DNA of 64,000 bases, taken from NCBI RefSeq assembly GCF_006345805.1, contig NC_043011.1, positions 40,436,464 through 40,500,463 of the forward strand, written 5' to 3'. Shown here piece after piece: positions 7,673 to 59,520 of this stretch. Under the pieces are notes generated by a model that ran no database searches, was not told the DNA's origin, and saw nothing but the letters and a program-made list of their open reading frames with translations. Numbering within the stretch: the first letter of the stretch is position 1; every line of letters begins with the position of its first letter. The position numbers were made by a program, and so were the translations under genes. Source of the DNA: Octopus sinensis. Its lineage: Eukaryota.

Positions 7673-7703
<31 letters not shown>

Positions 7704-7981
7704 ATTAATTAATAAGGGTGAGAGAATTAGATACTAATTTAATAGTATATCTATTCTACATCAAGTGGCCTGTGCTCCGAGAACCTGGATTATTATAATA
7801 TTTTATATATATTATAATATTTTTACAAAATAAATATAAGAGAGTGGTCACTATATGGCTCACTCTAGCAGCAGTTAATCCAATAGGTTTCAACCACAAA
7901 AATACATGTTTCCCATGAAAGTCAGTACGATTGTTAGCTCACACGGACAGAGCAAATAAAAAATAACAAAAATACAGATTA

Positions 7982-8063
7982 TTTTGGGACAATTGTTTCG
8001 CTATTAATGAATTAAATGTAATTTTACTTACAAAAAAATCCACTTGTAGCTCCTCAGCCAAAA
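7982..8063 (-). ncRNA. type I hammerhead ribozyme (array 1 left arm; also near 8522, 9056, 9587, 10120)
   Basis: UUUUGG-CUGAGGA-GCUA[hairpin]UAGC-GAAAC-AAUU-GUC^CCAAAA; all core nucleotides canonical. Confidence 0.88.
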
Positions 8064-11000
8064 CTATCTGGATGAAATCCACTCAATCAATCACACGCCA
8101 GATTTTATCATAACGATAAATACGCGTGTGGTTCAATTGATTACATCCGACGTTAAATTCAAATGCCCCAACCAACAGCGCGCCAAATTTTCACGGAAAA
8201 CAAATACAGCATTTAGAAATAAATGCAGCATAATTATAATTAATAATAAGGGTGAGAGAATTAGATACTAATTTAATAGTATATTCTATTCTACACCAAG
8301 TGGCCTAGTGCTCCGAGAAACCTGGATTATTATAATATTTTATAATATATTATAATATTTTTACAAAATAAATATAAGAGAGTGGTCACTATATGGCTCA
8401 CTCTAGCACCAGTTAATCTAATAGGTTTCACACACACAAAAATACATGTTTCCCATGAAAGTCAGTACGATTGTTAGCTCACACGGACAGGGCAAATAAA
8501 AAATAACAAAAATACAGATTATTTTGGGACAATTGTTTCGCGCTATTAATGAATTAAATGTAATTTTACTTACAAAAAAATCCCACTGTAGCTCCTCAGC
8601 CAAAACTATCTGGATGAAATCCACTCAATCACACGCCAGATTTTATCATAACGATAAATACGCGTGTGGTTCAATTGATTACATCCGACGTTATAATTCA
8701 AATGCCCCAACCAACAGCGCGCCAAATTTTCACGGAAAACAAATACAGCATTTAGAAATAAATGCAGCATAATTATAATTATTAATAAGGGTGAGAGAAT
8801 TAGATACTAATTTAATAGTTAATCTATTCTACACCAAGTGGCCTAGTGCTCGCGAGAAACCTGGATTATTATAATATTTTATAATATATTATAATTTTTT
8901 ACAAAATAAATATAAGAGAGTGGTCACTATATGGCTCACTCTAGCACCAGTTAATCCAATAGGTTTCAACCACAAAAATACATGTTTCCATGAAAGTCAG
9001 TACGATTGTTAGCTCACACGGACAGGGCAAATAAAAAATAACAAAAATACAGATTATTTTGCGACAATTGTTTCGCTATTAATGAATTAATGTAATTTTA
9101 CTTACAAAAAAATCCACTTGTAGCTCCTCAGCCAAAACTATCTGGATGAAATCCACTCAATCACACGCCAGATTTTATCATAACGATAAATACGCGTGTG
9201 GTTCAATTGATTACATCCGACGTTATAATTCAAATGCCCCAACCAACAGCGCGCCAAATTTTCACGGAAAACAAATACAGCATTAGAAATAAATGCAGCA
9301 TAATTATAATTAATTAATAAGGGTGAGAGAATTAGATACTAATTTAATAGTATATCTATTCTACACCAAGTGGCCTAGTGCTCCGAGAAACCTGGATTAT
9401 TATAATATTTTATAATATATTATAATATTTTTACAAAATAAATATAAGAGAGTGGTCACTATATGGCTCACTCTAGCACCAGTTAATCCAATAGGTTTCA
9501 ACCACAAAAATACATGTTTCCCATGAAAGTCAGTACGATTGTTAGCTCACACAGGACAGGGCAAATAAATAACAAAAATACAGATTATTTTGGGACAATT
9601 GTTTCGCTATTAATGAATTAAATGTAATTTTACTTACAAAAAAATCCACTTGTAGCTCCTCAGCCAAAACTATCTGGATGAAATCCACTCAATCACACGC
9701 CAGATTTTATCATAACGATAAATACGCGTGTGGTTCAATTGATTACATCCGACGTTATAATTCAAATGCCCCAACCAACAGCGCGCCAAATTTTCACGGA
9801 AAACAAATACAGCATTTAGAAATAAATGCAGCATAATTATAATTAATTAATAAGGGTGAGAGAATTAGATACTAATTTAATAGTATATCTATTCTACACC
9901 AAGTGGCCCGTGCTCCGAGAACCTGGATTATTATAATATTTTATATATATTATAATATTTTTACAAAATAAATATAAGAGAGTGGTCACTATATGGCTCA
10001 CTCTAGCACCAGTTAATCCAATAGGTTTCAACCACAAAAATACATGTTTCCCATGAAAGTCAGTACGATTGTTAGCTCACACGGACAGGGCAAATAAAAA
10101 ATAACAAAAATACAGATTATTTTGGGACAATTGTTTCGCTATTAATGAATTAAATGTAATTTTACTTACAAAAAAATCCACTTGTAGTTCCTCAGCCAAA
10201 ACTATCTGGATGAAATCCACTCAATCACACGCCAGATTTTATCATAACGATAAATACGCGTGTGGTTCAATTGATTACATCCGACGTTATAATTCAAATG
10301 CCCCAACCAACAGCGCGCCAAATTTTCACGGAAAACAAATACAGCATTTAGAAATAAATGCAGCATAATTATAATTAATTAATAAGGGTGAGAGAATTAG
10401 ATACTAATTTAATAGTATAATCTATCTACACCAAGTGCCTATTAACTGGTGCTAGAGTGAGCCATATAGTGACCACTCTCTTATATATTTGTAAAAATAT
10501 TATAATATATTATAATATTATAATAATCCAGGTTTCTCGGAGCACTAGGCACTTGGTGTGTAGAATAGATATACTATTAAATTAGTATCTAATTCTCTCA
10601 CCCTTATTAATTAATTTAATTATGCTGCATTTATTTCTAAATGCTGTATTTGTTTTCGTGAAAATTTGGCGCGCTGTTTGTTGGGGCATTTGAATTATAA
10701 CGTCGGATGTAATCAATTGAACCACACGCGTATTTATCGTTATGATAAAATGGGCGTGTGATTGAGTGGATTTCATCCAGATAGTTTTGGCTGAGGAGCT
10801 ACAAGTGGATTTTTTTGTAAGTAAAATTACATTTAATTCATTAATAGCGAAACAATGTCCAAAATAATCTGTATTTTTGTTATTTTTTATTTGCCCTGTC
10901 CGTGTGAGCTAACAATCGTACTGACTTTCATGGGAAACATGGATTTTGTGGTTGAAACCTATTGGATTAACTGGTGCTAGAGTGAGCCATATAGTGACCA

Positions 11001-12374
11001 CTCTCTTATAATTTATTTTGTAAAAATATTATAATATATTATAAAATATTATAATAATCCAGGTTTCTCGGAGCATTAGGCCACTTGGTGTAGAATAGAT
11101 ATACTATAAATTAGTATCTAATTCTCTCACCCTATTAATTAATTATAATTATGCTGCATTTATTTTAATGCTGTATTTGTTTTCCGTGAAAATTTGGCGC
11201 GCTGTTGGTTGGGGCATTTGAATTATAACGTCGGATGTAATCATTGAACCACACGCGTATTTATCGTTATGATAAAATCTGGCGTGTGATTGAGTGGATT
11301 TCATCCAGATAGTTTTGGCTGAGGAGCTACAAGTGGATTTTTTTGTAAGTAAAATTACATTTAATTCATTAATAGCGAAACAATTGTCCAAAATAATCTG
11401 TATTTTTGTTATTTTTTATTTGCCCTGTCCGTGTGAGCTAACAATCGTACTGACTTTCATGGGAAACATGTATTTTGTGTGGTTGAAACCTATTGGATTA
11501 ACTGGTGCTAGAGTGAGCCATATAGTGACCACTCTCTTATATTTATTTTGTAAAAATATTATAATAATATAAAATATTATAATAACCAGGTTTCTCGGAG
11601 CACTAGGCCACTTGGTGTAGAATAGATATACTATTAAATTAGTATCTAATTCTCTCACCCTTATTAATTAATTATAATTATGCTGCATTTATTTCTAAAT
11701 GCTGTATTTGTTTTCCGTGAAAATTTGGCGCGCTGTTGGTTGGGGCATTTGAATTATAACGTCGGATGTAATCAATGAACCACACGCGTATTTATCGTTA
11801 TGATAAAATCTGGCGTGTGATTGAGTGGATTTCATCCAGATAGTTTTGGCTGAGGAGCTACAAGTGGATTTTTTTGTAAGTAAAATACATTTAATTCATT
11901 AATAGCGAAACAATTGTCGCAAAATAATCTGTATTTTTGTTATTTTTTATTTGCCCTGTCCGTGTGAGCTAACAATCGTACTGACTTTCATGGGAAACAT
12001 GTATTTTTGTGGTTGAAACCTTTGGATTAACTGGTGCTAGAGTGAGCCATATAGTGACCACTCTCTTATATTTATTTTGTAAAAATATTATAATATATTA
12101 TAAAATATTAAATAATCCAGGTTTCTCGGAGCACTAGGCCACTTGGTGTAGAATAGATATACTATTAAATTAGTATCTAATTCTCTCACCCTTATTAATT
12201 AATTATAATTATGCTGCATTTATTTCTAAATGCTGTATTTGTTTTCCGTGAAAATTTGGCGCGCTGTTGGTTGGGGCATTTGAATTATAACGTCGGATGT
12301 AATCAATTGAACCACACGCGTATTTATCGTTATGGTAAATCTGGCGTGTGATTGAGTGGATTTCATCCAGATAG

Positions 12375-12456
12375 TTTTGGCTGAGGAGCTACAAGTGGAT
12401 TTTTTTGTAAGTAAAATTACATTTAATTCATTAATAGCGAAACAATTGTCCCAAAA
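12375..12456 (+). ncRNA. type I hammerhead ribozyme (array 1 right arm; also near 10785, 11313, 11844, 12906, 13437)
   Basis: TTTTGG CTGAGGA GCTA...TAGC GAAAC AATT GTC CCAAAA; stem I extends by CAGAT/ATCTG. Confidence 0.88.
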
Positions 12457-13671
12457 TAATCTGTATTTTTGTTTTTTTATTTGCCCTGTCCGTGTGAGCT
12501 AACAATCGTACTGACTTTCATGGGAAACATGTATTTTTGTGGTTGAAACCTTTTGGATTAACTGGTGCTAGAGTGAGCCATATAGTGACCACTCTCTTAT
12601 ATTTATTTTGTAAAAATATTATAATATATTATAAAATATTATAAAATCCAGGTTTCTCGGAGCACTAGGCCACTTGGTGTAGAATAGATATACTATTAAT
12701 TAGTATCTAATTCTCTCACCCTTATTAATTAATTATAATTATGCTGCATTTATTTCTAAATGCTGTATTTGTTTTCCGTGAAAATTTGGCGCGCTGTTGG
12801 TTGGGGCATTTGAATTATAACGTCGGATGTAATCAATTGAACCACACGCGTATTTATCGTTATGGTAAAATCTGGCGTGTGATTGAGTGGATTTCATCCA
12901 GATAGTTTGGGCTGAGGAGCTACAAGTGGATTTTTTTGTAAGTAAAATTACATTTAATTCATAATAGCGAAACAATTGTCCCAAAATAATCTGTATTTTT
13001 GTTATTTTTTATTTGCCCTGTCCATGTGAGCTAACAATCGTACTGACTTTCATGGGAAACATGTATTTTTGTGGTTGAAACCTATTGGATTAACTGGTGC
13101 TAGAGTGAGCCATATAGTGACCACTCTCTTATATTTATTTTGTAAAAATATTATAATATATTATAAAATATTATAATAATCCAGGTTTCTCGGAGCACTA
13201 GGCCACTTGGTGTAGAATAGATATACTATTAAATTAGTATCTAATTCTCTCACCCTTATTAATTAATTATAATTATGCTGCATTTATTTCTAAATGCTTA
13301 TTTGTTTTCCGTGAAAATTTGGCGCGCTGTTGGTGGGGCCTTTGAATTATAACGTCGGATGTAATCAATTGAACCACACGCGTATTTATCGTTATGATAA
13401 AATCTGCGTGTGATTGAGTGGATTTCATCCAGATAGTTTTGGCTGAGGAGCTACAAGTGGATTTTTTTGTAAGTAAAATTACATTTAATTCATTAATAGC
13501 GAAACAATTGTCGCCAAAATAATCTGTATTTTTGTTATTTTTTATTTGCCCTGTCCGTGTGAGCTAACAATCGTACTGACTTTCATGGGAAACATGTATT
13601 TTGGTGGTTGAAACCTATTGGATTAACTGGTGCTAGAGTGAGCCATATAGTGACCACTCTCTTATATTTAT

Positions 13672-13705
<34 letters not shown>

Positions 13706-15209: not shown

Positions 15210-15250
<41 letters not shown>

Positions 15251-15639
15251 TCACTCACTCACTCACGTTCGTAGGTATAGTGAAGCAGAGGGTTGCACAA
15301 TTCACGTATTGAGTCGACAAAAACATATTTGGTTAATTAAATTTAGACCCGTGTTGGAAATAAAAGTTATTAGCTATCATTAGTAATAATTCTCGTCTAA
15401 AAAGAACTCTCCGAAATGCAAATTGAATATAATTTCTATAGGATTATGTAGTGGTGTGGGAGATTGATCTTGGGCAAGTGTAGGGATTATGAGTGACATG
15501 TTTCTAATTTATTCAGCCACTTCAGTTTTATTCTTACTAGAAAAATTTCTAGAAACAGTGAAAATATTCAAAAAAAAATTAATAAAAATCTATTATATAA
15601 ATTATCTTCAAAAGAAGATTAGCAAACACCTGTTGAACT

Positions 15640-16126
15640 ATTTACATTTGACGGATATTTGTCCTCATCTTGTTTGTCGGGAGACCGTACATGTGTGGTG
15701 GTTTATCGTAGTGTCAAGTCAGTTGACTGTATTTCATTGGTGTAAAGTGATCCTTAATCAAGATCTGTGACAACTTCCTCTCTGTTTTCAGAGATGGGTC
15801 TTTCTTTACTTTGCTGTAGCTACCATCACTTATAAGACTTGCCAAGTTTTCCGAGCAGCCATACTTGTTCATCACCAATGTAGCATTTCCTTTGTCTGAC
15901 AACTCGAAAAACTTGGCAAGTCTTATAAGTGATGGTAGCTACAGCAAAGTAAAGAAAGACCCATCTCTGAAAACAGAGAGGAAGTTGTCACAGATCTTCA
16001 TCAAGAACAAGGGTCACTTAACACCAATGAAATATAGACAACTGACTCGACACTACACTAAACTACCTCACATGTACGGTCTCCCAAACAAACAAGATAA
16101 GGAGAAATATCCGTCAAATGTAAATA
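15640..16126. mobile_element. inverted pair of Penelope-like RT N-terminal fragments
   Basis: Minus: DKGNATLVMNK...LISDGSYSKVKKDPSLKTERKL. Plus: LISDGSY...KLPHMYGLP. DKG and P.xYGLPK are PLE RT motifs. Arms 15640-15850 and 15910-16126. Confidence 0.8.
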
Positions 16127-16334
16127 ATCTAAATAATGTACATAATTCCTCATCTCTTAAATATTGAACTGTATTACACCTGTTGGAAGTAAATTTTTGT
16201 GTAGGCGCGTTTCAGTATTCTCAGCTTTTGAAACCCACCTGTTTTAAGGTGTGTGTATACATACACATGCCGTGCACACACATGCGTGCATACACACATA
16301 CATATATCTATATACATGTGTGCATGTGTGGATG

Positions 16335-16365
<31 letters not shown>

Positions 16366-16420
16366 TCAGGGTGAGTACTTGATAATTGTAAGCACCTGTA
16401 TATACCGTTTATAAAACAAA

Positions 16421-16582
16421 ATGATGCCAAGGATTCAGCGGTACATATGTTTCGGGCCTTTATTAGACGGATTTATAACAATGCATAATGTGTGTCTATG
16501 GCCTTAGACACACATTATGCATTGTTATAAATCCGTCTAATAAAGGCCCGAAACATATGTACCGCTGAATCCTTGGCATCAT
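16421..16582. repeat. perfect ~78-bp-arm hairpin containing the 3' half of a hammerhead
   Basis: ATGATGCCAAGG...TGTGTCTA / TAGACACA...CCTTGGCATCAT; each arm carries GGCCC-GAAAC-ATAT-GTA. Confidence 0.85.
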
Positions 16583-16605
16583 GTTTTTATTTTGATTAAT
16601 TTATT

Positions 16606-16636
<31 letters not shown>

Positions 16637-16868: not shown

Positions 16869-17091
16869 ATTGTATAAAAGATCGTGGGTAAGGCCAAAAC
16901 AATGCTAAGTAAATGCAAGGTAAATCACCAGAAAACAAATATGTGAATTAATATAGACTTACCTTATATTCAGTATTTCGGGGTTATTGAATACAAGATA
17001 AGTCTACATTAATTCACATATTTGTTTTCTTGTGATTTCCCTTGCATTTACTTCGCATTGTTTTGGCCTTACCCACGATCCTTTATACAAT
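16869..17091. repeat. inverted repeat, ~93-bp arms, ~37-bp spacer
   Basis: 16869-16961 is the reverse complement of 16999-17091 with a few mismatches. Confidence 0.85.
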
Positions 17092-17514
17092 ATATTCTAC
17101 ACAATGCTTCATAATAATTATTCCATTATATATAACTACGAGCAAAACGCCCCCCGTCCAATGGACGGTGCTGAGTTGTCAAACATCTAAACCAAAGTTT
17201 CTCAAAACAACTTGTCCGACCGTCTCATAGGCCTCCCCTTTGAGAAACATTGATTTAACCTAAATTTGAGACACCAACAAAAGAAATAAAGATAGACTTT
17301 TTTCTATTCCAAAGACAAACGATTTTATTCACACAAATATGCAACCGAAGAGTTTAAAGTACCAGTAATGATAAGGCTGTTGACTGGGAGAACACAAACA
17401 TGGTTTAAATAGTAAGCTTGGCAGGAAAGAAACGTGCCTTTAAGCAGTACAAAAACAACAAAAAATGGAAGGTGCAGTTATGTATATGTTGACGGAAGAA
17501 AAGCAGGACAAAAA

Positions 17515-17727: not shown

Positions 17728-17756
<29 letters not shown>

Positions 17757-24155: not shown

Positions 24156-25108
24156 GCAAACTTTTACTTTTCTTAATTTAGAATAATAACATCTGGAGAA
24201 CATTTCCAGAAAGTGTAAATTTATCGATTTTTTTTCAAGCATATATCCTTCGCCATCTGTAAGAAGAATAAGTAACAACAACGAGGAGGCGGTTTATTTA
24301 TAATTTCTTTCGAAAGACGTAGAGCGAAGGAAAGTAACATTCTTTTGTTCTCTCAGTTCTCTTCAGTTTTGAAGAGCGAATACAATAGCAGAAGATGCAA
24401 AGATTGAATGACACAATCGAAACGATTTTGTTTATGCTTTTGTTTTTCAGGAGGTTTGAGAATATTAAAGAAAGCTATAAAACAATAAAGATTAAACTGA
24501 ACGTAAAGAAGTGGGCTACGATGACAACGATGACGACGACGATGAGGAGGACGACAAAGACGCGGACGACAACAACGATGGCGAAGGCAACGACAACGAT
24601 GATGATGATGGTGACAAAACGAGGCTGTACAAATTCATTAGGAAACATCTACCGACGCATATCTAATAGTATACACCATGCTTCGATATATCAAATACAA
24701 ACAATCACACATATACACTTATAAAGAAGTACACACACAGGCACGATTTTTGCATGGTTATATATGTATAAAGAAAACTCCGAATGACCCGTCCTTGTTT
24801 TCTTTGTATCCTCTATCTGGATGTTTTGTTGTCCCTTTCTTGTATCACCTAACTGTCTGGATGTTTTGCGTTCTTGTTCCATTTTGTATTATATATATAT
24901 ATATATATATATTATGTGAAATAGAAAGATGAATAATCTTGTAGCAGATTAATCAAAAGTTTAACCGATACCTTGGTAGCAAAAATCACAGCAGAAGACA
25001 GCACAGTTGGAGGTACAACCATATGGTGTTGCAACCGTGCGTTGGTGCGGATAATTGAATTTTAATATTATTAGTGAAATGAAGAAATGGAGCTGAACGA
25101 AATCGTTT

Positions 25109-25201
25109 TATTTCATTCTACACGTGTTTCGAAAGGCACAATTTACCAAAATCCGACTGAATAATGAGACCATATTGTGTCTTTCTCTTCAGGAAGAAAT
25201 A
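25109..25201 (-). ncRNA. type I hammerhead ribozyme
   Basis: Reverse complement of 26314-26406. Confidence 0.9.
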
Positions 25202-26313
25202 GGAAATCCGTTGGAAAAAACAAAAACAGAACAGAGGCGGAGCAAAACAAATCGAACTAGGCTCCTAAGAGCCCATGGCCAAACTGTTTATCAGTGTATA
25301 TTGAGAACGGGTGGTGGGTGCGTTGAAGAATTTAACGGGTCAGGCAGCGGTCATTCCTGTGGGTGAGGGCACGAGGTGTGTAGATGTTCTTTGTGACCGA
25401 GAGTAAAGTTCTGACTATTTAAAGAATATTGGATGTATTATATGGGGCGAGTCAAAATCTACTTAGAGACATGTGTGTGTTTACTGTTCTATATATGTGT
25501 GCTGGCGCGAGTTGGTAAGAAGCGCTATTTTCTGGTCACTGCTGAGAACTCCGTCAAGGGGTAGAAAACATTTTTTGTGTACGTGTGTGCGTTTGATCGC
25601 GCGGCTGTCAGTTGTTAAACAGCTCTACACAATGGTCACTGCAGTAAAAACCGTCGGGCGGCAGAAAAATATTTTATGTTTTATGTGTGCGTGTGTTCGT
25701 CTAATCATGCCTTGTCAAAGAGACCCCCCGTCGTCAAAAACAAAGCCCCATTCATCTCACAGGAGTAGTGAGATGAGCATGATTAGACGAACATGATTGA
25801 CAAGGCATGATTAGACGAACACACGCACACATAAAACATAAAATATTTTTCTGCCGCCCGACGGTTTTTACTGCAGTGACCATTGTGTAGAGCTGTTTAA
25901 CAACTGACAGCCGCGCGATCAAACGCACACACGTACACAAAAAATGTTTTCTACCCCTTGACGGAGTTCTCAGCAGTGACCAGAAAATAGCGCTTCTTAC
26001 CAACTCGCGCCAGCACACATATATAGAACAGTAAACACACACATGTCTCTAAGTAGATTTTGACTCGCCCCATATAATACATCCAATATTCTTTAAATAG
26101 TCAGAACTTTACTCTCGGTCACAAAGAACATCTACACACCTCGTGCCCTCACCCACAGGAATGACCGCTGCCTGACCCGTTAAATTCTTCAACGCACCCA
26201 CCACCCGTTCTCAACATACACCGATAAACAGTTTGGCCATGGGCTCTTAGGAGCCTAGTTCGATTTGTTTTGCTCCGCCTCTGTTCTGTTTTTGTTTTTT
26301 CAAACGGATTTCC

Positions 26314-26406
26314 TATTTCTTCCTGAAGAGAAAGACACAATATGGTCTCATTATTCAGTCGGATTTTGGTAAATTGTGCCTTTCGAAACACGTGTAGAAT
26401 GAAATA
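26314..26406 (+). ncRNA. type I hammerhead ribozyme
   Basis: TATTTCTTC-CTGAAGA-GAAAGACACAAT...ATTGTGCCTTTC-GAAAC-ACGT-GTA^GAATGAAATA. Confidence 0.9.
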
Positions 26407-26454
26407 AAACGATTTCTGTTCAATCTTCGTTCAGCTCCATTTCTTCATTTCACT

Positions 26455-26499
<45 letters not shown>

Positions 26500-26989: not shown

Positions 26990-27745
26990 TAGCGGCGTAC
27001 GTACACTTTGGTCTCTTATATGTAAGTATATATTCATCTAAATCTTGTACGACTCTATTCTTTTATTCTTTCCTACTTTCTATCGGCCCTTGCACGCTTC
27101 GTTTCATTCCACTCTTCGTTCTTTCGTTACTCCCCTCTCACATTTCATTGCCTTCTCTTCATGCTCCCTTTCTCCCCTCTTTTCACTTCACTGTGTCCCT
27201 GTCATTTTTTTCTTGCGCTTCCTTATTTCTTCTGTCCCTCTGCCTCTACCTCTCTCTATTCTCTCCCCACGTGTTGGGTATTCGGCCAAGCCTGACCATT
27301 CTTTCTTGTTTCAACTGCTGTCCGTGCAACATCTATATTCTTCTCTGTGCCTGCGAAATCTTGTATCCCTGCCGTAAGGCTTTACTTCCACACACGCCAG
27401 CTTAATGTAATTTGTCCTTAGTCGAAAGACACCTGTTGTTATGTCCTGTTATTTGTATTTGTGTAACTTTTTCCGTTTTTTTCCTGTCCCTGTTTTCGTA
27501 TACATTCGCTGCTTTCTTCCAAGTAATCTAATGCTCTTAGCTTAGTTTTTCCTTGGGGCTGGCCAGATTGGAGCAATCTCGAATATAACCAGCGGAAATT
27601 GTAAAGATAATCTGGATCTCGACTGAGGAAAGAAAACTCCGAATGACCCGTCTTTGTTTTCTTTGTATCATCTATCTGGATATTTTGTCGTCCCTTTCTT
27701 ATATCACCTAACTGTCTGGATGTTTTGCGTTCTTGTCCCATTTTG

Positions 27746-27748
<3 letters not shown>
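26990..27748 (+). mobile_element. pyrimidine-rich non-coding repeat between (TA)n tracts; its last ~118 bp also at 24771-24888
   Basis: 27630-27748 matches 24771-24888; CGACTGAGGAA motif shared with the 824-bp unit. Confidence 0.55.
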
Positions 27749-27792
<44 letters not shown>

Positions 27793-30348: not shown

Positions 30349-30705
30349 AAGCGACAAGGGAAATGTATGGAGTTTGGATGCCAGCGAAAATAGCTGGGAG
30401 GCAATTTAAAAATCGATCTTTAAAGCAGAAATGTCAATATAACTAAAATAGCTATTTCTTATTATGAATAATTGTTATAACAAAAATAATAGGCTGATAG
30501 GCAAGGAGAAAGGTTTACATGAATAAAATAAATAATGAAAAATAGAGGAAACAAAGAGAAAAGAAGAGAAAGAAAAAGAAGAAACTCTAACCAGCTTTCT
30601 ATAGTATTCTTATACAAGGCTTTAATGCATTCTCAACGGCTTCTTGCGTTGTAATGATTTCAAATGTAGACTTAGAGGCCGTGGATTTTTTGTCGTACAG
30701 TACTT

Positions 30706-31212
30706 CTCTATGGTTGTGAAACGTGGCCTATGCGGGTGGTCGATCAACGAAGGCTCGAAGTCTTCGACAATGACTGCCTCCGGTGCATTCTTCGCTGCCA
30801 TCGGGTGGATCGAGTTCCCACCGCCAATCTCCGACTTCGCCTGTCTCTGCGGCCCCTTCCATCTGTCCTTCTGCAACGGCGCTTGCGGTGGTTTGGCCAT
30901 GCATGTAGGCATCCGGTGGGTGAACTGAGCCGTGATGTCCTTCTCCCAACTCCACTTCCCAACTGGCGGAAACGCGCGGGCGGGCAGCTGAAGACCTGGG
31001 TTACGACGATCAAGGAGGACCTCTCTGTGCTCACGGGACCGCAGGTGGTCGGCCTGCGCCAGTGGAACCGTGACTGGCTCGCTATCTCTAGTGAACTGGC
31101 GCACGACCATCGTGCGTGGGCTGCCATGGTTCGAGATGCCTCGAGGATGGTAGAAGAAGCCGACTCAACCCGCCCAGGGTGAATGTCGCCACAAGTACAA
31201 GTACAAGTAAGT
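30706..31212 (+). mobile_element. RTE-clade LINE 3' end, 5'-truncated
   Basis: LYGCETWP...CLRCIL...RRLRWFGHACR...W C-terminus with open frame and stop at 31182, then (CAAGTA)3 tail. Confidence 0.9.
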
Positions 31213-34320: not shown

Positions 34321-34365
<45 letters not shown>

Positions 34366-34577
34366 GTGAAGGGAAGAAATGGAGCCGAACGAAGATTCTT
34401 CCCTTCACTAAATATATAAAACTTCAAGTATCCGCGCTAAAGCACGGGGGCGAAACCCCATGGTCGTAACCTCAACCGTGTCTTTTCTGGTGTGGTTTTT
34501 GCTACACAGGTATCGGTTAAATTTTGAATAATCCGTAACAAGATAATTCATTTATCCATTTCATTATGTATATATAC

Positions 34578-34785: not shown

Positions 34786-35093
34786 ATATATATTATGTAT
34801 GTATGTATATATATATATATATACATATACTATATATATATACATTTTATATATATGTATATATATGTCTATATATGTATATATATGTGTATATATATTA
34901 TATATATATATATTATATAAAAGGGCTTAGTAAAATAAATTACTTTGCCGCATACTGAACTCATTAGAAATAGCAGCTAAAAAACTTTTTTAAGGCTATT
35001 TCTAATACTTAAAGAAAATCTCTCTCATATATAGTGTTTGCATAATTTAACTCACAAAAGTTTGGGGGTAATGACATCGAAAAATCAAATGCT

Positions 35094-35163
35094 AAGGTTA
35101 TTCGAGAACGTACGTTTCAAGATTAGTCAAAACAACATTCTATCATCGGCTCGGAAATTCCTT
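35094..35163 (-). ncRNA. variant type I hammerhead (array 2 left arm; also near 35635, 36181, 36721)
   Basis: Reverse complement of the motif at 37429. Confidence 0.6.
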
Positions 35164-37428
35164 GGTTGGATTTGGAAACACTGAAAATAAGAACATACCC
35201 TCTCGAAGATCTGCTCCCAACTAACAGTGCCAACAAATTCAAAATAAGCAAGCGAAGAATCTCTGTTCTCCCCTTTCCACCAGCGTGGGTTAAAATCATC
35301 AAACTCTATGCTTATTTCGGTAAAGTCCGAAGCATTAATCAGAGGGAGATTAATTATAATTTCAACAATTGAGGGCAAAATTAATTAATTATTAATCAAT
35401 TTCACCAAGTGTTCAGTATGCAAAGGGACCATTCAAGGCGAATTCAAATTATTACATTATATAAAAGGGCTTAGTAAAATAAATTACTTTGCCGCATACT
35501 GAACTCATTAGAAATAGCAGCTAAAAAACTTTTTTAAGGCTATTTAATACTTAAAGAAAATCTCTCTCATATATAGTGTTTGCATAATTTAACTCACAAA
35601 AGTTTGGGGGTAATGACATCGAAAAATCAAATGCTAAGGTTATTCGAGAACGTACGTTTCAAGATTAGTCAAAACAACATTTCTATCATCGGCTCGGAAA
35701 TTCCTTGGTTTGGATTTGGAAACACTGAAAATAAGAACATACCCTCTCGAAGATCTGCTCCAACTAACAGTGCCAACAAATTCAAAATAAGCAAGCGAAG
35801 AATCTCTGTTCTCCCCTTTCCACCAGCGTGGGTTAAAATCATCAAACTCTATGCTTATTTCGGTAAAGTCCGAAGCATTAATCAGAGGGAGATTAATTAT
35901 AATTTCAACAATTGAGGGCAAAATTAATTAATTATTAATCAATTTCACCAAGTGTTCAGTATGCAAAGGGACCATTCAAGGCGAATTCAAATTATTACAT
36001 TATATAAAAGGGCTTAGTAAAATAAATTACTTTGCCGCATACTGAACTCATTAGAAATAGCAGCTAAAAAACTTTTTTAAGGCTATTTCTAATACTTAAA
36101 GAAAATCTCTCTCATATATAGTGTTTGCATAATTAAATCACAAAAGTTTGGGGGTAATGACATCGAAAAATCAAATGCTAAGGTTATTCGAGAACGTACG
36201 TTTCAAGATTAGTCAAAACAACATTTCTATCATCGGCTCGGAAATTCCTTGGTTTGGATTTGGAAACACTGAAAATAAGAACATACCCTCTCGAAGATCT
36301 GCTCCCAACTAACAGTGCCACAAATTCAAAATAAGCAAGCGAAGAATCTCTGTTCTCCCCTTTCCACCAGCGTGGGTTAAAATCATCAAACTCTATGCTT
36401 ATTTCGGTAAAGTCCGAAGCATTAATCAGAGGGAGATTAATTATAATTTCAACAATTGAGGGCAAAATAATTAATTATTAATCAATTTCACAAGTGTTCA
36501 GTATGCAAAGGGACCATTCAAGGCGAATTCAAATTATTACATTATATAAAAGGGCTTAGTAAAATAAATTACTTTGCCGCATACTGAACTCATTAGAAAT
36601 AGCAGCTAAAAAACTTTTTTAAGGCTATTTCTAATACTTAAAGAAAATCTCTCTCATATATAGTGTTTGCATAATTTAACTCACAAAAGTTTGGGGGTAA
36701 TGACATCGAAAATCAATGCTAAGGTTATTCGAGAACGTACGTTTCAAGATTAGTCAAAACAACATTTCTATCATCGGCTCGGAAATTCCTTGGTTTGGAT
36801 TTGGAAACACTGAAAATAAGAACATACCCTCTCGAAGATCTGCTCCCAACTAACAGTGCCAACAAATTCAAAATAAGCAAGCGAAGAATCTCTGTTCTCC
36901 CCTTTCCACCAGCGTGGGTTAAAATCATCAAACTCTATGCTTATTTCGGTAAAGTCCGAAGCATTAATCAGAGGGAGATTAATTATAATTTCAACAATTG
37001 AGGGCGCAAACACTATATATGAGAGAGATTTTCTTTAAGTATTAGAAATAGCCTTAAAAAAGTTTTTTAGCTGCTATTTCTAATGAGTTCAGTATGCGGC
37101 AAAGTAATTTATTTTACTAAGCCCTTTTATATAATGTAATAATTTGAATTCGCCTTGAATGGTCCCTTTGCATACTGAACACTTGGTGAAATTGATTAAT
37201 AATTAATTAATTTTGCCCTCAATTGTTGAAATTATAATTAATCTCCCTCTGATTAATGCTTCGGACTTTACCGAAATAAGCATAGAGTTTGATGATTTTA
37301 ACCCACGCTGGTGGAAAGGGGAGAACAGAGATTCTTCGCTTGCTTATTTTGAATTTGTTGGCACTGTTAGTTGGGAGCAGATCTTCGAGAGGGTATGTTC
37401 TTATTTTCAGTGTTTCCAAATCCAAACC

Positions 37429-37499
37429 AAGGAATTTCCGAGCCGATGATAGAAATGTTGTTTTGACTAATCTTGAAACGTACGTTCTCGAATAACCTT
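37429..37499 (+). ncRNA. variant type I hammerhead (array 2 right arm; also near 37969, 38510, 39054)
   Basis: AAGG..TTCCGAG-CCGATGA-TAGA...TCTT-GAAAC-GTAC-GTT^CTCGAA..CCTT; U4C core and GUU triplet. Confidence 0.6.
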
Positions 37500-40400
37500 A
37501 GCATTTGATTTTTCGATGTCATTACCCCCAAACTTTTGTGAGTTAAATTATGCAAACACTATATATGAGAGAGATTTTCTTTAAGTATTAGAAATAGCCT
37601 TAAAAAAGTTTTTTAGCTGCTATTTCTAATGAGTTCAGTATGCGGCAAAGTAATTTATTTTACTAAGCCCTTTTATATAATGTAATAATTTGAATTCGCC
37701 TTGAATGGTCCCTTTTGGTGAAATTGATTAATAATTAATTAATTTTGCCCTCAATTGTTGAAATTATAATTAATCTCCCTCTGATTAATGCTTCGGACTT
37801 TACCGAAATAAGCATAGAGAGTTTGATGATTTTAACCCACGCTGGTGGAAAGGGGAGAACAGAGATTCTTCGCTTGCTTATTTTGAATTTGTTGGCACTG
37901 TTAGTTGGAGCAGATCTTCGAGAGGGTATGTTCTTATTTTCAGTGTTTTCCAAAAACCAAGGAATTTCCGAGCCGATGATAGAAATGTTGTTTTGACTAA
38001 TCTTGAAACGTACGTTCTCGAATAACCTTAGCATTTGATTTTTCGATGTCATTACCCCCAAACTTTTGTGAGTTAAATTATGCAAACACTATATATGAGA
38101 GAGATTTTCTTTAAGTATTAGAAATAGCCTTAAAAAAGTTTTTTAGCTGCTATTTCTAATGAGTTCAGTATGCGGCAAAGTAATTTATTTTACTAAGCCC
38201 TTTTATATAATGTAATAATTTGAATTCGCCTTGAATGGTCCCTTTGCATACTGAACACTTGGTGAAATTGATTAATAATTAATTAATTTTGCCCTCAATT
38301 GTTGAAATTATAATTAATCTCCCTCTGATTAATGCTTCGGACTTTACCGAAATAAGCATAGAGTTTGATGATTTTAACCCACGCTGCTGGTGGAAAGGGG
38401 AGAACAGAGATTCTTCGCTTGCTTATTTTGAATTTGTTGGCACTGTTAGTTGGGAGAGCAGATCTTCGAGAGGGTATGTTCTTATTTTCAGTGTTTCCAA
38501 ATCCAAACCAAGGAATTTCCGAGCCGATGATAGAAATGTTGTTTTGACTAATCTTGAAACGTACGTTCTCGAATAACCTTAGCATTTGATTTTTCGATGT
38601 CATTACCCCCAAACTTTTGTGAGTTAAATTATGCAAACACTATATATGAGAGAGATTTTCTTTAAGTATTAGAAATAGCCTTAAAAAAGTTTTTTAGCTG
38701 CTATTTCTAATGAGTTCAGTATGCGGCAAAGTAATTTATTTTACTAAGCCCTTTTATATAATGTAATAATTTGAATTCGCCTTGAATGGTCCCTTTGCAT
38801 ACTGAACACTTGGTGAAATTGATTAATAATTAATTAATTTTGCCCTCAATTGTTGAAATTATAATTAATCTCCCTCTGATTAATGCTTCGGACTTTACCG
38901 AAATAAGCATAGAGTTTGATGATTTTAACCCACGCTGGTGGAAAGGGGAGAACAGAGATTCTTCGCTTGCTTATTTTGAATTTGTTGGCACTGTTAGTTG
39001 GGAGCAGATCTTCGAGAGGGTATGTTTATTTTCAGTGTTTCCAAATCCAAACCAAGGAATTTCCGAGCCGATGAAGAAATGTTGTTTTGACTAATCTTGA
39101 AACGTACGTTCTCGAATAACCTTAGCATTTGATTTTTCGATGTCATTACCCCCAAACTTTTGTGAGTTAAATTATGCAAACACTATATATGAGAGAGATT
39201 TTCTTTAAGTATTAGAAATAGCCTTAAAAAAGTTTTTTAGCTGCTATTTCTAATGAGTTCAGTATGCGGCAAAGTAATTTATTTTACTAAGCCCTTTTAT
39301 ATAATGTAATAATTTGAATTCGCCTTGAATGGTCCCTTTGCATACTGAACACTTGGTGAAATTGATTAATAATTAATTAATTTTGCCCTCAATTGTTGAA
39401 ATTATATATATATATTATATATATAATATATATATATATACATATATATATATGAAAGAAAGTTATTTTATTCCATGTGCGTAAAAATATATGAGCAAAG
39501 AAGTTGAAAACGCACTGGCAGTCTTTTATCTGTTTTATTTTTAATGGCTTAACCGGTTTCACACATTTTTCTGAGTTTCAAAATTTGAGATAGAAAGACG
39601 TGCGGCTATGGCGCAGCTATTTTGCATTTGACTGAAGTTCGAAAATTCTCTTTTGTTTTTATAGAGAGCTCATGACTCAAATTAATATTTGTTTAGAATA
39701 CACTTTGGCTGATACGCATGTTAGCCTAAACTTAGAGTGCAAAAAATATTGTTATATTATATTAACGCACGGACGTAGTTGGGAACATGCAAACATTTCT
39801 AAGGCTAATCACGTGATAATTCTCTACTGATTAAAAAAAAATATATCCATTTAATGGATATTAATTTAAGTCATTTTGTCTCTACAAATACGCGAATTTT
39901 CGAACTCCAGTCAGAAGCAAGACATTCGCGGCATAGCCCCCCCCCCCACGTCTTTCCATCTCACTTAATTTAAGAAAATCAGAAAAATCTATGAAACGGG
40001 TTGAGCATTCAAAAACCAACCATTTCAAAAATTCCCACTGAATTTCTCCCTTCAGGAAGGAGGAGTTAATACAAACTGGCCAACCCTGGAATTTACAGAT
40101 ACTAGGAAAACTAAGAAATAACACCATCTTAGTTGTTTGATGAAAATATTATGGTATGTGTTATGGAATGCTTCTGTCATTCCATTAGTAATAGACACTG
40201 GATTGATACACAGCCATTTTTGTAAAGACACTGAAAAGTTCCCTGTAACGATAGACAGCCATGTTCAAGAAAATAGCAGTGCTATTAGAATCAGTAAATT
40301 ATTGTTAGTGCATTCTCATACAGCATTTGATCATGAAAATTCTTATTGATCTTCAACATCTTCGTTAATCATGAATACGTTTATGCATGTTGTCAAAGAC

Positions 40401-46803: not shown

Positions 46804-47191
46804 AAATGTATAAAAGAATACAAAGCAAACATTAATATTGTATATACATGTGTGTGTGTGTGTATGCATGAATGTATATGTATATATATACATACATATA
46901 TATATATATTATATATATATGTGTGTATATATAATAGATAAATATAGATATATTTTGATTCCTACTTGTTTAATTCATTTCAATGCGGCCATGCCGGAGC
47001 ACTGGCTTAAAGTGTTATTAGTCGAGGAAGTTCACACCATGACTTATTCTTTGTAAGCTGGGTACTTATTCTATCGAAGTCTTTTGACGAACCGCTAATG
47101 TTACAGGGATTTAAACACACCAACATCCGTTGTCAAACGATTGTGAATGCACAAACACACAAAAACATATGTATATATGTATATAAAACAC

Positions 47192-47730
47192 AATAAATAA
47201 TATTAAGGGTAATAAGAATTATAGAAATTATTATTACCAGTGGCCTAGCACAAAAAAATTAGTCAATAGATTATATATTATTCGCATAAAAATATCGTAT
47301 ACATTAAAACACATTAAGAGGCTTCCAAATAGGAAAGCTTTGTGCTAGAAGGAGCAGTAGAAAACTCAAACCACTAATTAGGGATAAATTCTCGAAAAGA
47401 ATAAAAATCGAAAACGTTTACCATCTAATTTAGTTCCTAGACCATGGTTTCCGACTAATTCCAGTAAAAAAATATTTACTGAGGCCAGCTTCGTCAGTAG
47501 GGAGCCTTTAGATTTCAAATATACACACAACTAGATTCACATGTAAACTAGCTGCCTGTATATCTTAACTTTTCAAAACCACTGCGCAGATGCAGTTTAT
47601 TTCCGGCGACAGAGGGGATGTACACGATATTTTTATGTGAATAATATATAGTCTATTGACTAATTTTTGTTGTGCTAGGCCACTGGTAATAATAATTTCT
47701 ATAATTCTTATTACCCTAATATTATTTATT
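47192..47730. mobile_element. fold-back element with ~90-bp inverted ends and an internal hammerhead; related to the array 1 unit
   Basis: 47192-47283 mirrors 47637-47730; TAAGGGT...ACCAGTGGCCTAG shared with array 1. Confidence 0.8.
47435..47502 (-). ncRNA. type I hammerhead, stem II base degenerate
   Basis: CCTA-CTGACGA-[..TCAGTAAA/TTTACTGG..]-GAAAC-CATG-GTC^TAGG. Confidence 0.75.
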
Positions 47731-47777
47731 ATGTTTAAATATTTTTTGATAAATTTGTTCGAAATTTTACCAGCATG

Positions 47778-48453: not shown

Positions 48454-48636
48454 TATTGTTGTTGTTGTTCTTGTAGTATCGTGGCGAAGAAAACTCACCC
48501 GATATTGATTTTAATACATATGAAAAATAATAGTTTATGTAATCAAATCTCGGTGCAAATAAACGGAAATCATAGAAAAATTGTTGTTTCGTATGAATTT
48601 TCTGCGGTTTTAAATATCTGTGAGTATAGGTATATA

Positions 48637-49344
48637 TTGGGTTGGCAACTAAGTTCCCGCCGTTTTTTAAAATTTTGGAATCTAAGAATCTAAGAATACA
48701 TTATTGATTGACTAATTAATCAATAATGTATTCACGTTTGTTGTTTACAACTTCTTTCCAACGTTCAACTAGATTTTCAATACTTCGTTGGTAGAAATCA
48801 CCCGATTTCACCGCGAAAAATTGATCCAACCAAGCTCTCAATTCTGCACCAGTATTGAACGAAACTCCGCGCATAGCATTGCTTGTGTCCATGAGTTGAG
48901 CAGTGACGAGCAAGCAAACCAGCGGAGATTGTGGCTCGATGATTTTTGTTGTCGTGACTTAAAGCATGCGGAACCCATGCTCCATATTTCTGAACCTTTC
49001 CCATCGAGGTGCGTCTTTGAGGTCAAAATTTCCATTTTTGAACTTAGCATACCAATCACGATCGGTTCTTTCAGCTATGGCACCCTCTCCATACACAACA
49101 GAAATGTTGCGAGCAGCTTTTGCAGCCTTAGAACCTTGATTAAAAGCAAAAAGGAGGTGTCGAAAATGCTCATTTTTCTTAACTGGATATTCCATTTTAA
49201 TGATCTGAAAATAAAAGAAAATTAACTAAAATTAACTAGAAGAAAAAACAAAATAGATTCCAAAATAATTCAAAAATAGAATTCTCGAAAAAAAAAAAGA
49301 TTCCAAAATTTAAAAACACGGCGGGCACCTTATTGCAAACCCAA
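48637..49344 (-). mobile_element. internally deleted mariner (mellifera-like)
   Basis: TIRs TTGGGTT(G/T)GCAA..AGG/AAGT.CCCGCCG in TA context; NEHFRHLL...KFKNGNFDL.D.PR, WVPHAL, IENLVERW. Confidence 0.9.
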
Positions 49345-49428
49345 ATATATAATGTATTATATTTATGTATGTATGTGTATATATATATATATATATATTT
49401 ACACACACACACATACATACATACATAC

Positions 49429-49487
<59 letters not shown>

Positions 49488-49606
49488 CGTTTGACTTTAT
49501 ATATATATATATATATATACACATAGATACATACATATATACACACACATATATATATATATATATTATATATATACATATACATATCTATATATACATA
49601 TATATA

Positions 49607-49644
<38 letters not shown>

Positions 49645-49669
49645 ATTATATATGCAAAACTATTGTGTA

Positions 49670-49735
<66 letters not shown>

Positions 49736-49741
49736 TATATA

Positions 49742-49894
49742 TTGGGTTTGCAACTAGGTGCCCGCCGTGTTTTTAAATTTTGGAATCTTTTTGTTTTTTT
49801 TTCGAGAATTCTATTTTTGAATTATTTTGGAATCTATTTTGTTTTTTCTTCTAGTTAATTTTAGTTAATTTTCTTTCATTTTCAGATTATTAAA
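49742..49894 (+). mobile_element. second copy of the same mariner 5' end, inverted
   Basis: Near-exact reverse complement of 49197-49344. Confidence 0.85.
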
Positions 49895-50872: not shown

Positions 50873-50911
<39 letters not shown>

Positions 50912-52995: not shown

Positions 52996-53029
<34 letters not shown>

Positions 53030-55710: not shown

Positions 55711-56087
55711 ATTTATGCTTAATAAAATCCCACAAATCGAATATAAACACATGCCTCACTATTTATATAGGAGAGAGAGAGAGAGTTCTGTGTGCTTCTG
55801 TATCTCTAACTGGCTGTGTGGTTAAGAAGGTCGCTTTGCAACTAGATGAATCCGAGCTTTAGCTCTCTGCTTTGCATCTTGGCTAACCGTCATCTTTTAC
55901 ACTCTCTAACCGACTAATTTCATTGAGAGTGAACTTGGTTTATCCTGTTCAGGCTATATTATTAGCATTATCCTGCGTTTGAGAATTTATATTCACTTCT
56001 TTAACTTTCTAAGACATCTCAACGCTTCTAAAGCAAACTTCGTTTGTTTGTTTACGTTCATCGAAATTTGAATTATATATATATATA

Positions 56088-56725: not shown

Positions 56726-57017
56726 ATATATATATGTATATATATATATAGATTTACATATATATATTACACATTTACAAAATTTCGGATAATCTTCTTG
56801 CTCATTACATCCCATTCGGCCTTGGGTTATAAATAGAGAACAAATTTAGAGTGGATTGTTGGTATTTGACATCTTCTAGCGTATAGGCACTGACATTTCA
56901 GCGTCTTTAATTATAGTTACATTTTTATAATTATATAATTAAAAATTCATTTTACCGGTATGGCCATTTTTTTATACGCAAGCCAGATATAATTATTTTA
57001 ATGACCATAACCTCAAT

Positions 57018-57078
<61 letters not shown>

Positions 57079-57082
<4 letters not shown>

Positions 57083-58305
57083 GATATCAAGAAAGTTCTT
57101 GCGGAATTTTTAATATTGGTTTCAAATTAATTTTCGTTAAATTACTTTGACTTTATATATCATTTTAAAACCGGTTTTTCGCTCTATCTAATCGTGTTAC
57201 TTTTTGAATAATTAGGCCATTTTGTCCTGGACGTTGAATACAACATGGACAAAAAGCAAATTCGCACAATTTTCTTATTCCAGTTCAACCTAGGCCGAAA
57301 AGCTGCTGAAACAGCTCGCGTGCGCTTGGCTCAGGAACCACTAATGAACGTACAGCACAATGGTGGTTCAAGAAATTTCATAGCGGTGACGAGAGTCTTG
57401 AAGATGATAAGCCTAGTGGTTGGCCATCGGATGTTTACAACGATCAACTAAGAGCCTTAGTGGAAGCCAATCCACGCCCAACTGTTCGAGAGCTTGCTTC
57501 TGAATTAGACGTAACGTATACAATTTCCAACCATTTGAAAGAAATTGGAAAAGCAAAAATACTTGAGAAATGGGTGCCGCACGAATTGAGCGACAGCCCC
57601 CCCCCCAAAAAAAAATGCCGTTTTGAAGTGCCGTCTTCCCTTCTTTTACGCGACAAGAACGACCTGTTTCTCGACCGGATTGTGACTTGCGATGAAAAGT
57701 GGATTCTTTACGACAACCGGCGACGCTCAGCTCAGTGGTTGGACGCCGATAAAGCTTCACGGCACTTTCCGAAGCCGAAGTTGCACCAAAAGAAAGTCGT
57801 GGTGAGTGTTTAATGGTCTGTGGCTGGTCTCATCCATTGACAGCTTTTTGGATCCAGGCGATACCATTACGGCGGAGAAGTACTGTCAGCAAATGGATGA
57901 AATGCATAAGAAACTCCGACAACAACAGTCAGCAATGGTCAATAGAAAAGGACCAATTCTTCTCCACGACAACGCTCGGCCGCACGTCGCACAACTGACC
58001 TTGCAGAATTTCAACGAATTTGGCCACGAAACTCTGCCTCATCTGCCATACTCACCAGACCTCTCGCCTACCGACTACCACTTTTTCAAGCATCTCTACA
58101 TCTTCCTGTGTGAGAAATGCTTCAAAAACCAAGACGATGCCAAACACGCCTTCAACGACTTCATCGGCAGCAGAATGCAGGATTTTACACGTTGGCAAAA
58201 GTGTGTTGATTCAGTGTTTATTTCGATTAATAACATTTTGTTGAGCCGAGATATGTGCATCTAAATTTAAAGGTTAAAAATGCAAGAACTTTCTTGACAA
58301 CCTAA
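57079..58305 (+). mobile_element. near full-length decayed mariner (cecropia/Hsmar1-like) in (TA)n
   Basis: TIRs TTGGGATATCAAGAAAGTTCTTGC / GCAAGAACTTTCTTGACAACCTAA. Confidence 0.93.
57245..58230 (+). pseudogene. mariner transposase, frameshifted
   Basis: [49 protein letters not shown]; spread over several frames and third catalytic D lost. Confidence 0.92.
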
Positions 58306-58324
58306 TATATATATATATATATAT

Positions 58325-58855
58325 ATAAATATAATCATTACAGATATAGGGTAAAGAATTATTAATTTAATATATTTTACCAAGTAGTTTCGGTATGGAA
58401 AAGAACCATATTCGGTAAAAACTTATACAAAAAGTGTTTTTATATATAATTATAACAATAATTAAGGGTTTAGCAACAAGTTACTTAACCACATACCGAA
58501 AATTTAGAAATAGCAGCCAAAAGACCGCTATTTCTTTTTCCTACAAAATCCGTCTCGACAGATAACAATATAACTTCTAAATTTTCGGTATGTGATGTTG
58601 CTAAACCCTTAATTATTATTATAATTATATACTCTTTTTTTTATTACTCTTTTTACTTGTTTCAGTCATTTGACTGTGGCCATGCTGGAGCACCGCCTTT
58701 AATCGAGCAACTCGACCCCGGGACTTATTCTTTTGTAAGCCCAGTACTTATTCTACCGGCCTCTTTTGCCGAACCGCTAAGTAACGGGGACATAACACAC
58801 CAGCATCGGTTGTCAAGCAATGCTAGGGGGACAAACAAAGACACGAACACACACA

Positions 58856-58912
<57 letters not shown>

Positions 58913-59520
58913 GACGGGCTTCTTTCAGTCTCCGTCTACCAAATCCACTCACAAGGCTTTGGTTGGCCCGAGGCTATAGTAGAAGACACTTGCCCAAGGT
59001 GCCATACCGAAACTACTTGGTAAAATTTATTAATTTATTAAATTAATAATTCTTTACCCTATATCTGTAATGATTATTTTACTCCCTGGTAACAAAATTG
59101 TGGATCTCTTTCTACGGTACTATCTTGTGACGCACATGGTAAACTTGAGGGAAATACGAATTCAGTCGTCTATATAAGTTTGGATATGCTGACTACCTTG
59201 TGTTATGTTCTGATGGCGCGTGATCAGAAATGCAAAGGGTAAGTTTTCCTAGCATTTTCAAATTTATAATTTTCGAAATATTATGTTGACAATGGAAATG
59301 AATTTTTATAATTCTAATCCAGAAACGCGTCCATAATTAATCGAAGACTGTTTGATTTAATTATTTTTCTTCTTTTTACCTATGTGTGTTACAAATATTG
59401 CTATCTGTGGAGACATATTTTGTAGGAAAAAGAAATAGCAGTCTTTTGGCTGCTATTTCTAAATTTTCGGTATGTGGTGAAGCAACAAGTTGTTAAAACC
59501 CTTAAGTATTGTTATATATA
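58325..59520. mobile_element. older fold-back element of the array 2 family, interrupted by a family-C SINE (58633-59003)
   Basis: 58330-58397 mirrors 59004-59076 and 58450-58570 mirrors 59395-59520. AAGGG.TTAG...TTAGAAATAGCAGC...GCTATTTCT shared with array 2. Confidence 0.8.
59280..59337 (+). ncRNA. decayed type I hammerhead
   Basis: ATTATG-TTGACAA-TGGA...TCCA-GAAAC-GC-GTC^CATAAT. Confidence 0.65.

Follow-up and report, generated by a model that had tools for sequence, protein, structure and literature searches.

The stretch of DNA considered here (the window) comprises 64,000 nucleotides of the Octopus sinensis contig NC_043011.1 (positions 40436464-40500463); the genome of this animal measures 2.7 Gb and abounds in (TA)n. 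It holds a series of fold-back insertions, in which copies of a Penelope-like element (PLE), or of a small non-coding retrozyme carrying hammerhead ribozymes, lie head to head with their RNA 3' ends outward. The two outer ends of such an insertion are unlike, each arm stopping at a different fixed site, and it will be argued that a Penelope-like enzyme may prime both cut strands of the target on a single RNA, at two start sites that bound a tail. By comparing the window with itself, inverted repeats were found at all seven places pointed out by a first-pass annotation (named hereafter by position: 7.7k, 15.6k, 16.4k, 25k, 34.9k, 47.2k and 58.3k). RNA sense was set independently of the ends, either by scanning a hammerhead descriptor on both strands or from a reverse transcriptase (RT) frame; where it was read from hammerheads, it is inferred from predicted ribozymes. 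The 3'-outward polarity that the annotation had described, left arm minus and right arm plus, was recovered at 7/7.

Fold-back insertions in the window

The array at 7.7k belongs to family A, a retrozyme whose 535-nt unit carries a type I hammerhead. Its left arm (7700-10419, minus strand, about five units) has its outer end at the long site (+291, counted from the predicted position of cleavage), and its right arm (10441-13672, plus strand, about six units) at the short site (+159), (TA)n following in both cases. The 21-nt junction between them (10420-10440) resembles a degraded continuation of the left arm, and the descriptor scan placed hammerhead cores on the minus strand within 8057-10195 and on the plus strand within 10791-13443. 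The family B retrozyme array at 34.9k, with a 546-nt unit, is made of a left arm with a short end (34912-37005, minus, +195) and a right arm with a long end (37006-39406, plus, +296), joined bluntly and with (TA)n outside both. Families F and G are old retrozymes, the latter related to B. At 47.2k, the long left arm of family F (47186-47617, minus) has a long end and carries the core that sets the sense (minus strand, 47497; agreement in 15/20 loci), and the right arm (47618-47775, plus) ends about 40 nt beyond the long site, in (TCTG)n/(TCTA)n, and thus in neither end class. At 58.3k, the left arm of family G (58328-58574, minus) has a long end with (TA)n outside, and the right arm (58575-59520, plus), which a common dispersed repeat interrupts at about 58632-59001, has a short end; its sense comes from a decayed core on the plus strand, seen in 7/20 loci vs 0 on the other strand.

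According to the descriptor scans, the units of families A, B, F and G are non-coding, stand in tandem and each carry a type I hammerhead fold, decayed in G; on these sequence features, the families may be classed as non-LTR (long terminal repeat) retrozymes. In family B the predicted ribozyme is non-canonical: its core reads CCGAUGA and its cleavage triplet GUU in 204/204 units (37215-39406 in the window, and relatives), and the core, by which the sense at 34.9k was set, is on the right-arm strand only. Among the 150 of 212 Rfam rows covered there was no hammerhead, solely microsatellite-driven miRNA rows that were of no help for polarity.

The remaining places hold shorter or linear elements. 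At 15.6k lies an internally deleted PLE, whose left arm (15639-15905, minus), an RT fragment joined to the end of the pseudo-LTR (pLTR), has a short end, lacks TA and has a 10-bp direct repeat outside; the right arm (15904-16175, plus) shows the identical deletion junction and a long end, with a tail of about 50 nt followed by the second copy of the direct repeat. The right arm encodes a Penelope-type RT frame on the plus strand, which sets the sense. The window fragment alone gave no Pfam match; its relatives matched RVT_1 at E=1e-9 and, weakly, group II intron and telomerase RT structures, and the RT frame of the family carries DKG and YGLPKIH motifs, which we take to be typical of PLEs. No C-terminal GIY-YIG endonuclease domain was matched by Pfam in this family; atlas look-alikes (0.96-0.97) carry one in 22-31% of members. 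In one further locus (L131), a hammerhead-like core, a short end and a tail lie ahead of a 320-aa open frame, that is, a pLTR with a hammerhead in partial tandem before an open reading frame (ORF). At 16.4k, a family E stub has a tailed left arm (16355-16505, minus, long end) and a right arm with a short end (16500-16603, plus), lies in (TA)n and folds on the self-complementary GGCC of hammerhead stem II; as the core of this copy was lost at the junction, its sense was taken from relatives, where the core is on the right-arm strand in 17/20 loci and on the other strand in 0. Family C, at 25k, is linear with one hammerhead near its end: the left arm (24912-25783, minus) includes a tail of about 150 nt, the right arm (25797-26462, plus) has a short end, (TA)n lies outside both, and the cores at +26323 and -25192 give a sense that agrees in 27/30 loci.

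Two further fold-backs, similarly laid out, had been overlooked by the annotation. The first, of family H (16869-17135), has a left arm with a short end (16869-16975) and a right arm (16985-17135) with a tail of about 40 nt; its RNA sense has no ribozyme anchor. No hammerhead was seen in the part of family H examined, relatives show a splice-donor-like sequence, and this may be a Naiad-type end. The second, a minimal family C-like fold-back at approximately 34357-34563, lies in (TA)n and consists of a minus arm of about 40 nt with a short end and a plus arm that is mostly tail. The inverted pairs at 19.9-20.9k, 46.6-47.2k and 49.2-49.9k resemble other repeat types and were left uncounted.

Polarity, flanks and outer ends across the genome

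The polarity of seven out of seven in the window gives p=0.008 (one-sided) when taken by itself; the families were also followed through the genome. Family A was sampled at the best-scoring 40 of 966 candidate loci and family B at the best-scoring 34 of 746, all taken as best unit matches and without selection for inversion; a second view of L032, two extensions (L083, L084) and loci present twice (L092, L096, L186, L193) were excluded before counting, and L032, L066 and L074 additionally from the flank test. The strong outward bias that the annotation had predicted was found: 56 junction calls were outward and 0 inward (p=3e-17), and independent junctions numbered 55/55. Family A contributed 29 calls (28 independent) and 12 single arms, and family B 27 junctions and 8 single arms, fold-backs thus making up about three quarters of the sampled young loci (28/40 and 26/34). 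In families C, E, F and G, 40/40 junctions were outward (C, 10 pairs in 28 loci; E, 11 pairs in 18; F, 12 calls, 11 independent, in 20; G, 8 in 19), as were 9 in the 15 loci of family H, and no 3'-inward junction was present among the sampled loci of families A, B, C, E, F and G. One plus-then-minus adjacency, at L170 in family F, was rejected as an inward junction, being a duplicated insertion whose copies lie about 100 nt apart across TA. Whole fold-backs in direct tandem with identical junctions, at L032 (3232-8048) and L170, were also noticed, either a real duplication or an assembly overlap, and at L066 (1990-7940) and L180-L193 several independent fold-backs lie no more than a few hundred bases from one another, which suggests repeated targeting of TA-rich sites. 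The head-to-head polarity has been published for related elements, and it does not suffice to tell twin priming from the copying back of a single cDNA.

The outer ends are TA-rich in 51/58 cases in family A and 53/53 in family B (104/111 together), vs 4% of the window 20-mers, in agreement with the (TA)n enrichment that the annotation had expected. In the window itself its (TA)n claim holds in part: (TA)n stands on both flanks at 7.7k, 16.4k, 25k and 34.9k, at 58.3k it stands on the left, the right flank having just a few TA bases, and it is missing at 15.6k and to the right of 47.2k. (TA)n is a preference rather than a requirement. Two family A insertions split a common repeat, the uninterrupted copies of which carry TA at the insertion point in 39/57 and 38/59 cases; in some cases at least, therefore, the TA was already in place as the target before insertion. 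An empty-site test found colinear flanks in 4/71 insertions, two of them convincing, and the two flanks had strings in common in 14/71 insertions vs 41/761 mismatched pairs, many of these strings being of low complexity. A further family of repeats that terminate in (TA)n was seen at 24770-24912 and 27623-27775, with a CTGAGGA core-like motif at 27623; its TA tract borders the 25k insertion on the left.

The places where the arms stop are also regular. Measured from the predicted cleavage site, family A arms stop at about +161 or about +291 and family B arms at about +195 or about +296, and neither end coincides with the predicted ribozyme cut. The two outer ends of a fold-back are thus different fixed sites, 100-150 nt apart, one per arm: short and long ends were combined in 26/28 fold-backs of family A and 25/27 of family B, in other words in 51/51 classifiable pairs, with 0 short+short or long+long pairs among them; in the other four fold-backs, one arm was truncated or ended outside both classes. 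The long end lies on the left and on the right arm equally often. Unlike ends were also the rule elsewhere (C, 10/10; E, 11/11; F, 8; G, 4; H, 8/9); two long+long calls in F were rejected as cut-offs, by the query end for the window copy and by the locus edge for the first L170 copy. The stretch between the two sites is the published PLE tail, which measures about 150 nt in C and about 75 nt in E, and by analogy with an Anolis element studied in vitro we infer that the outer ends may be the sites of priming. If priming occurred independently on separate RNAs, like ends would be expected about half the time, against 0/51 observed (p ~4e-16). A CCCT-like pyrimidine tract, a possible start signal, was noticed 10-20 nt before many short and long ends in A, B, E, F and G; it is present at unused places as well.

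Template, junctions and the route of insertion

The arms of one fold-back are more alike than arms of different loci: in family A they diverge by 0.30% within a locus (n=21) vs 0.77% between loci (n=1841), and in family B by 0.08% (n=24) vs 0.41% (n=1677), with p ~1e-7 for A and B. Nine variants confined to a single locus are each present in both arms there, and at variant sites the arms agree vs disagree 39 to 27 times in A and 21 to 6 in B; part of the discordance is probably due to assembly errors and to short arms of a single unit. In addition, the RT-to-pLTR deletion at 15.6k was found in both arms and, by exact-pattern search, nowhere else. Arms sharing private variants point to one RNA molecule as the probable template, and a single template for both cDNAs would fit these variants together with the unlike ends; the annotation, which had spoken of the same RNA species, is to be narrowed to that extent.

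Concerning the form of this RNA in retrozymes, 116/132 arms cross the predicted cleavage site, arrays reach 16.7 units and 5' ends are not piled up at the cleavage site (6 vs 3.9 expected), which would suit a circle or an uncleaved multimer, but not a cleaved monomer. A reverse-transcription scar at the ligation site was rejected, as it occurred in 1/219 units in B and the excess in A (10/77) lies in a homopolymer. At 7.7k, 3/10 units, in both arms, have an extra G just after the predicted cleavage site (approximately 9060-9065, 11916-11921 and 13510-13516), absent from all 115 units elsewhere; it could be a repeated misreading of the RNA ligation site, mirror copying or a sequencing error. 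A 14-nt deletion is common to one unit each of two unrelated family B arrays (37715 region and L050), and single contigs of 565 and 563 letters in runs X3 and X18 hold the family A unit, a size that fits a collapsed tandem or circular 535-nt unit.

The reading to which we lean, and which seems to us somewhat probable, is that a Penelope-like enzyme uses one RNA as template for priming from both cut strands, with a start site at each boundary of the tail. At an AT-rich site, the RT-endonuclease of the element would nick the two strands, and the 3' ends so freed would both prime on a single RNA molecule; one of them would start at the short site and the other 100-150 nt beyond it, at the long site. 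In retrozymes, both cDNAs would travel around a small RNA circle, with the one behind displacing the one ahead. Extension would halt at random, after which the two cDNAs would anneal over 0-5 nt and each would prime the second strand of the other; where one priming fails, a single-arm insertion would result. The annotation had proposed that both ends of the cut prime and that the cDNAs join centrally, and this is the best-supported model, except that the two primings are not equivalent, involving as they do two different fixed sites.

The junctions allow this reading to be compared with copy-back, in which a single target-primed cDNA folds and is copied back, the product being joined to the other end of the target at a second fixed site and the centre of the palindrome being later trimmed by microhomology-mediated deletion. 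We consider this unlikely, even though it would cover the unlike ends, the shared private variants and the two-arm deletion junction at 15.6k, as well as the fold on GGCC at 16.4k and a single variant at 7.7k whose positions in the two arms nearly mirror each other. Insert-free junctions have an overlap of 2-5 nt in 8/16 cases in A and 13/22 in B (21/38 in total vs 19% expected), junction microhomology being one of the points that the annotation had proposed to tabulate, and 13 further A/B junctions carry inserts of 1-21 nt. The two 5' ends are unrelated in phase (Kolmogorov-Smirnov p 0.59 and 0.12) and the fold offsets uniform; short loops, as of a folded cDNA, are not in excess (9/51 offsets within 40 nt vs about 8 expected). 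Either arm may be the longer one (14/26 in A and 13/25 in B), and in 11/51 loci neither arm contains the other, so neither could have been copied from the other as they now stand; copy-back would require a later deletion at all of these, and both orders equally common. Furthermore, a cDNA copied back should mirror the changes within its array, and of 81 minority substitutions 80 are not mirrored, nor is any of the 10 calls of arm indels of at least 8 nt, although this test is weak, as many array changes may be assembly errors. Finally, a more TA-like tract between the two family A sites is unused as an end.

Somewhat more doubtful is that two sibling RNAs from one source locus are dual-primed on an asymmetric enzyme dimer, each half with a different start site. 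Siblings would share variants, no displacement would be needed on linear RNAs whose arms overlap by at least 600 nt (family C), and dual priming has been proposed as a variant of L1 insertion in the available part of PMC2837659. Two free RNAs, however, should give the like ends that are missing from the 51 pairs, and a mixed RNA pool unlike variants between arms, so that this explanation needs extra assumptions for both. A further idea, put forward for rotifer Penelope elements, is that an antisense transcript primes itself at a central palindrome. This is very improbable: it is a published account of the head-to-head bias (PMC3846280, in the passages available) and 16.4k does fold on a palindrome, but A/B junction positions are uniform and mostly non-palindromic, the strict unlike ends are left unexplained, and initiation in vitro is target-primed at the tail boundaries (PMC11167929). 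An assembly artefact from fold-back long reads can be practically discounted, for while the window arms have many small indels typical of noisy reads and the 7.7k junction is bridged by no short-read contig in four runs (nor are those at 16.4k and 16.9k among the matches listed), chimeras would produce random polarity and mirror-image flanks where two fixed unlike ends and unrelated flanks are seen, a stronger argument than the diverged arms invoked by the annotation, and a contig of run X16, which may be from the source sample, crosses the middle of the 15.6k fold-back, reaching 82 letters to one side and 33 to the other without a difference.

Several points weigh against priming of both strands on one RNA. 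Long arm overlap on one RNA demands strand displacement, and the duplications made by L1 twin priming are short, with a median of 22 bp (bioRxiv 10.1101/2024.08.27.596794, available in part). In vitro, the start site used by the Anolis element PAc did not differ between strands (PMC11167929). The predicted fold of the circle did not bring the short and long sites together, their graph distance falling at the 29th and 45th percentile, and this idea was rejected. Family A arms are discordant at 27/66 variant sites, the two-arm deletion junction at 15.6k fits copy-back or conversion equally well, and if the centre were deleted once the insertion was in place, hairpin tips could be lost and the 11 non-contained cases would be produced. 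The sole minority variant present in both arms (1/81), at 7.7k, stands at near mirror positions, a third unit there having a related change. Moreover, 15.6k and one end of 47.2k are outside TA, and the sampling of best-scoring loci biases families A and B toward long young arrays.

Known systems and neighbouring features

The head-to-head layout, the one-sided tail and the TA preference are already published, as are two start sites in vitro. Insertions of endonuclease-bearing PLEs are described, in the passages available of PMC3846280 and PMC8557442, as having an inverted 5'-truncated pLTR, with head-to-head as the common form and a one-sided tail that is optional or often on one end. The octopus insertions share with them the head-to-head copy, the tail on one end, the (TA)n preference, a hammerhead near the end and the target duplication of 8-10 bp outside TA, here the 10-bp repeat at 15.6k. 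In contrast to those passages, tails here reach 100-150 nt, the one-tail rule is near absolute rather than a frequent state (51/51 classifiable A/B pairs and 21/21 C/E pairs), and the layout extends to non-coding multi-unit arrays and accounts for so large a share of the young loci sampled. As regards PAc, a Penelope/Poseidon element, both strands were cleaved and extended at AT-rich DNA in vitro, with internal initiation, two RT start sites bounding the tail and a predicted dimer (PMC11167929). Two sites bounding the tail and an AT-rich target are common to both systems; inverted insertions and the pairing of sites on one molecule are not addressed in that text.

Metazoan non-LTR retrozymes, as presented in the parts available of PMC7229834 and bioRxiv 10.64898/2026.07.22.740005, are likewise tandem AT-rich units with a type I hammerhead each and no ORF, for which a circular template and a PLE origin have been proposed. 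The word 'inverted' is absent from the available main text of PMC7229834 and occurs in the available part of the preprint just in a reference title, and no description of fixed insertion ends was found in those passages of either. In the twin-priming model of Ostertag and Kazazian for L1, according to the available parts of bioRxiv 10.1101/2024.08.27.596794 and PMC2837659, both nicks prime on one RNA, the 3' ends point outward and the join is made by microcomplementarity. The outward 3' ends and the microhomology at the internal junction are the same here, but in L1, on that account, the second primer anneals by chance, the arms have hardly any overlap and the first is the longer. In the octopus fold-backs the second site is a fixed one, the arms overlap over hundreds to thousands of bases, and the longer arm may be either of the two. 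The fold-backs therefore work like twin priming yet fail the L1 definition. Strict short/long pairing, or a twin-priming model for PLEs, was not found in the literature searched, which did not extend to older PLE reviews, so that an earlier statement may exist.

In a wider sense, two-site twin priming might be the normal integration route of endonuclease-bearing Penelope elements, via an enzyme dimer on one RNA (in retrozymes, one circle), with one fixed start site per cut strand and RTs in tandem with displacement, though we stop a little short of expecting it. If true, one mechanism would cover the inverted pLTR, the one-sided tail, tandem arrays and second-strand synthesis. PLEs are the sister group of telomerase, and in the available part of a 2021 survey the formation of their tandem and inverted insertions was called undefined (PMC8557442); their second-strand synthesis was still unvalidated in the in vitro work of 2024 (PMC11167929). 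The strict rule of one short and one long end, together with the same-template signal, narrows this mechanism to a directly testable model, the findings link the putative circles of animal retrozymes to the Penelope machinery by their footprint, and the fold-back insertions account for a major source of the kilobase-sized palindromes found here.

Other features were noticed in the window, the first two by eye. A frameshifted mariner-like transposase at 57310-58264 adjoins the 58.3k fold-back, and fragments resembling reading frames of RTE-type long interspersed nuclear elements lie at 30676-31182 and 60607-62151. At 49196-49894 and 48631-48683, an inverted pair with arms of about 170 nt around a long (TA)n looks like a different repeat, either resembling a miniature inverted-repeat transposable element or facing TA.

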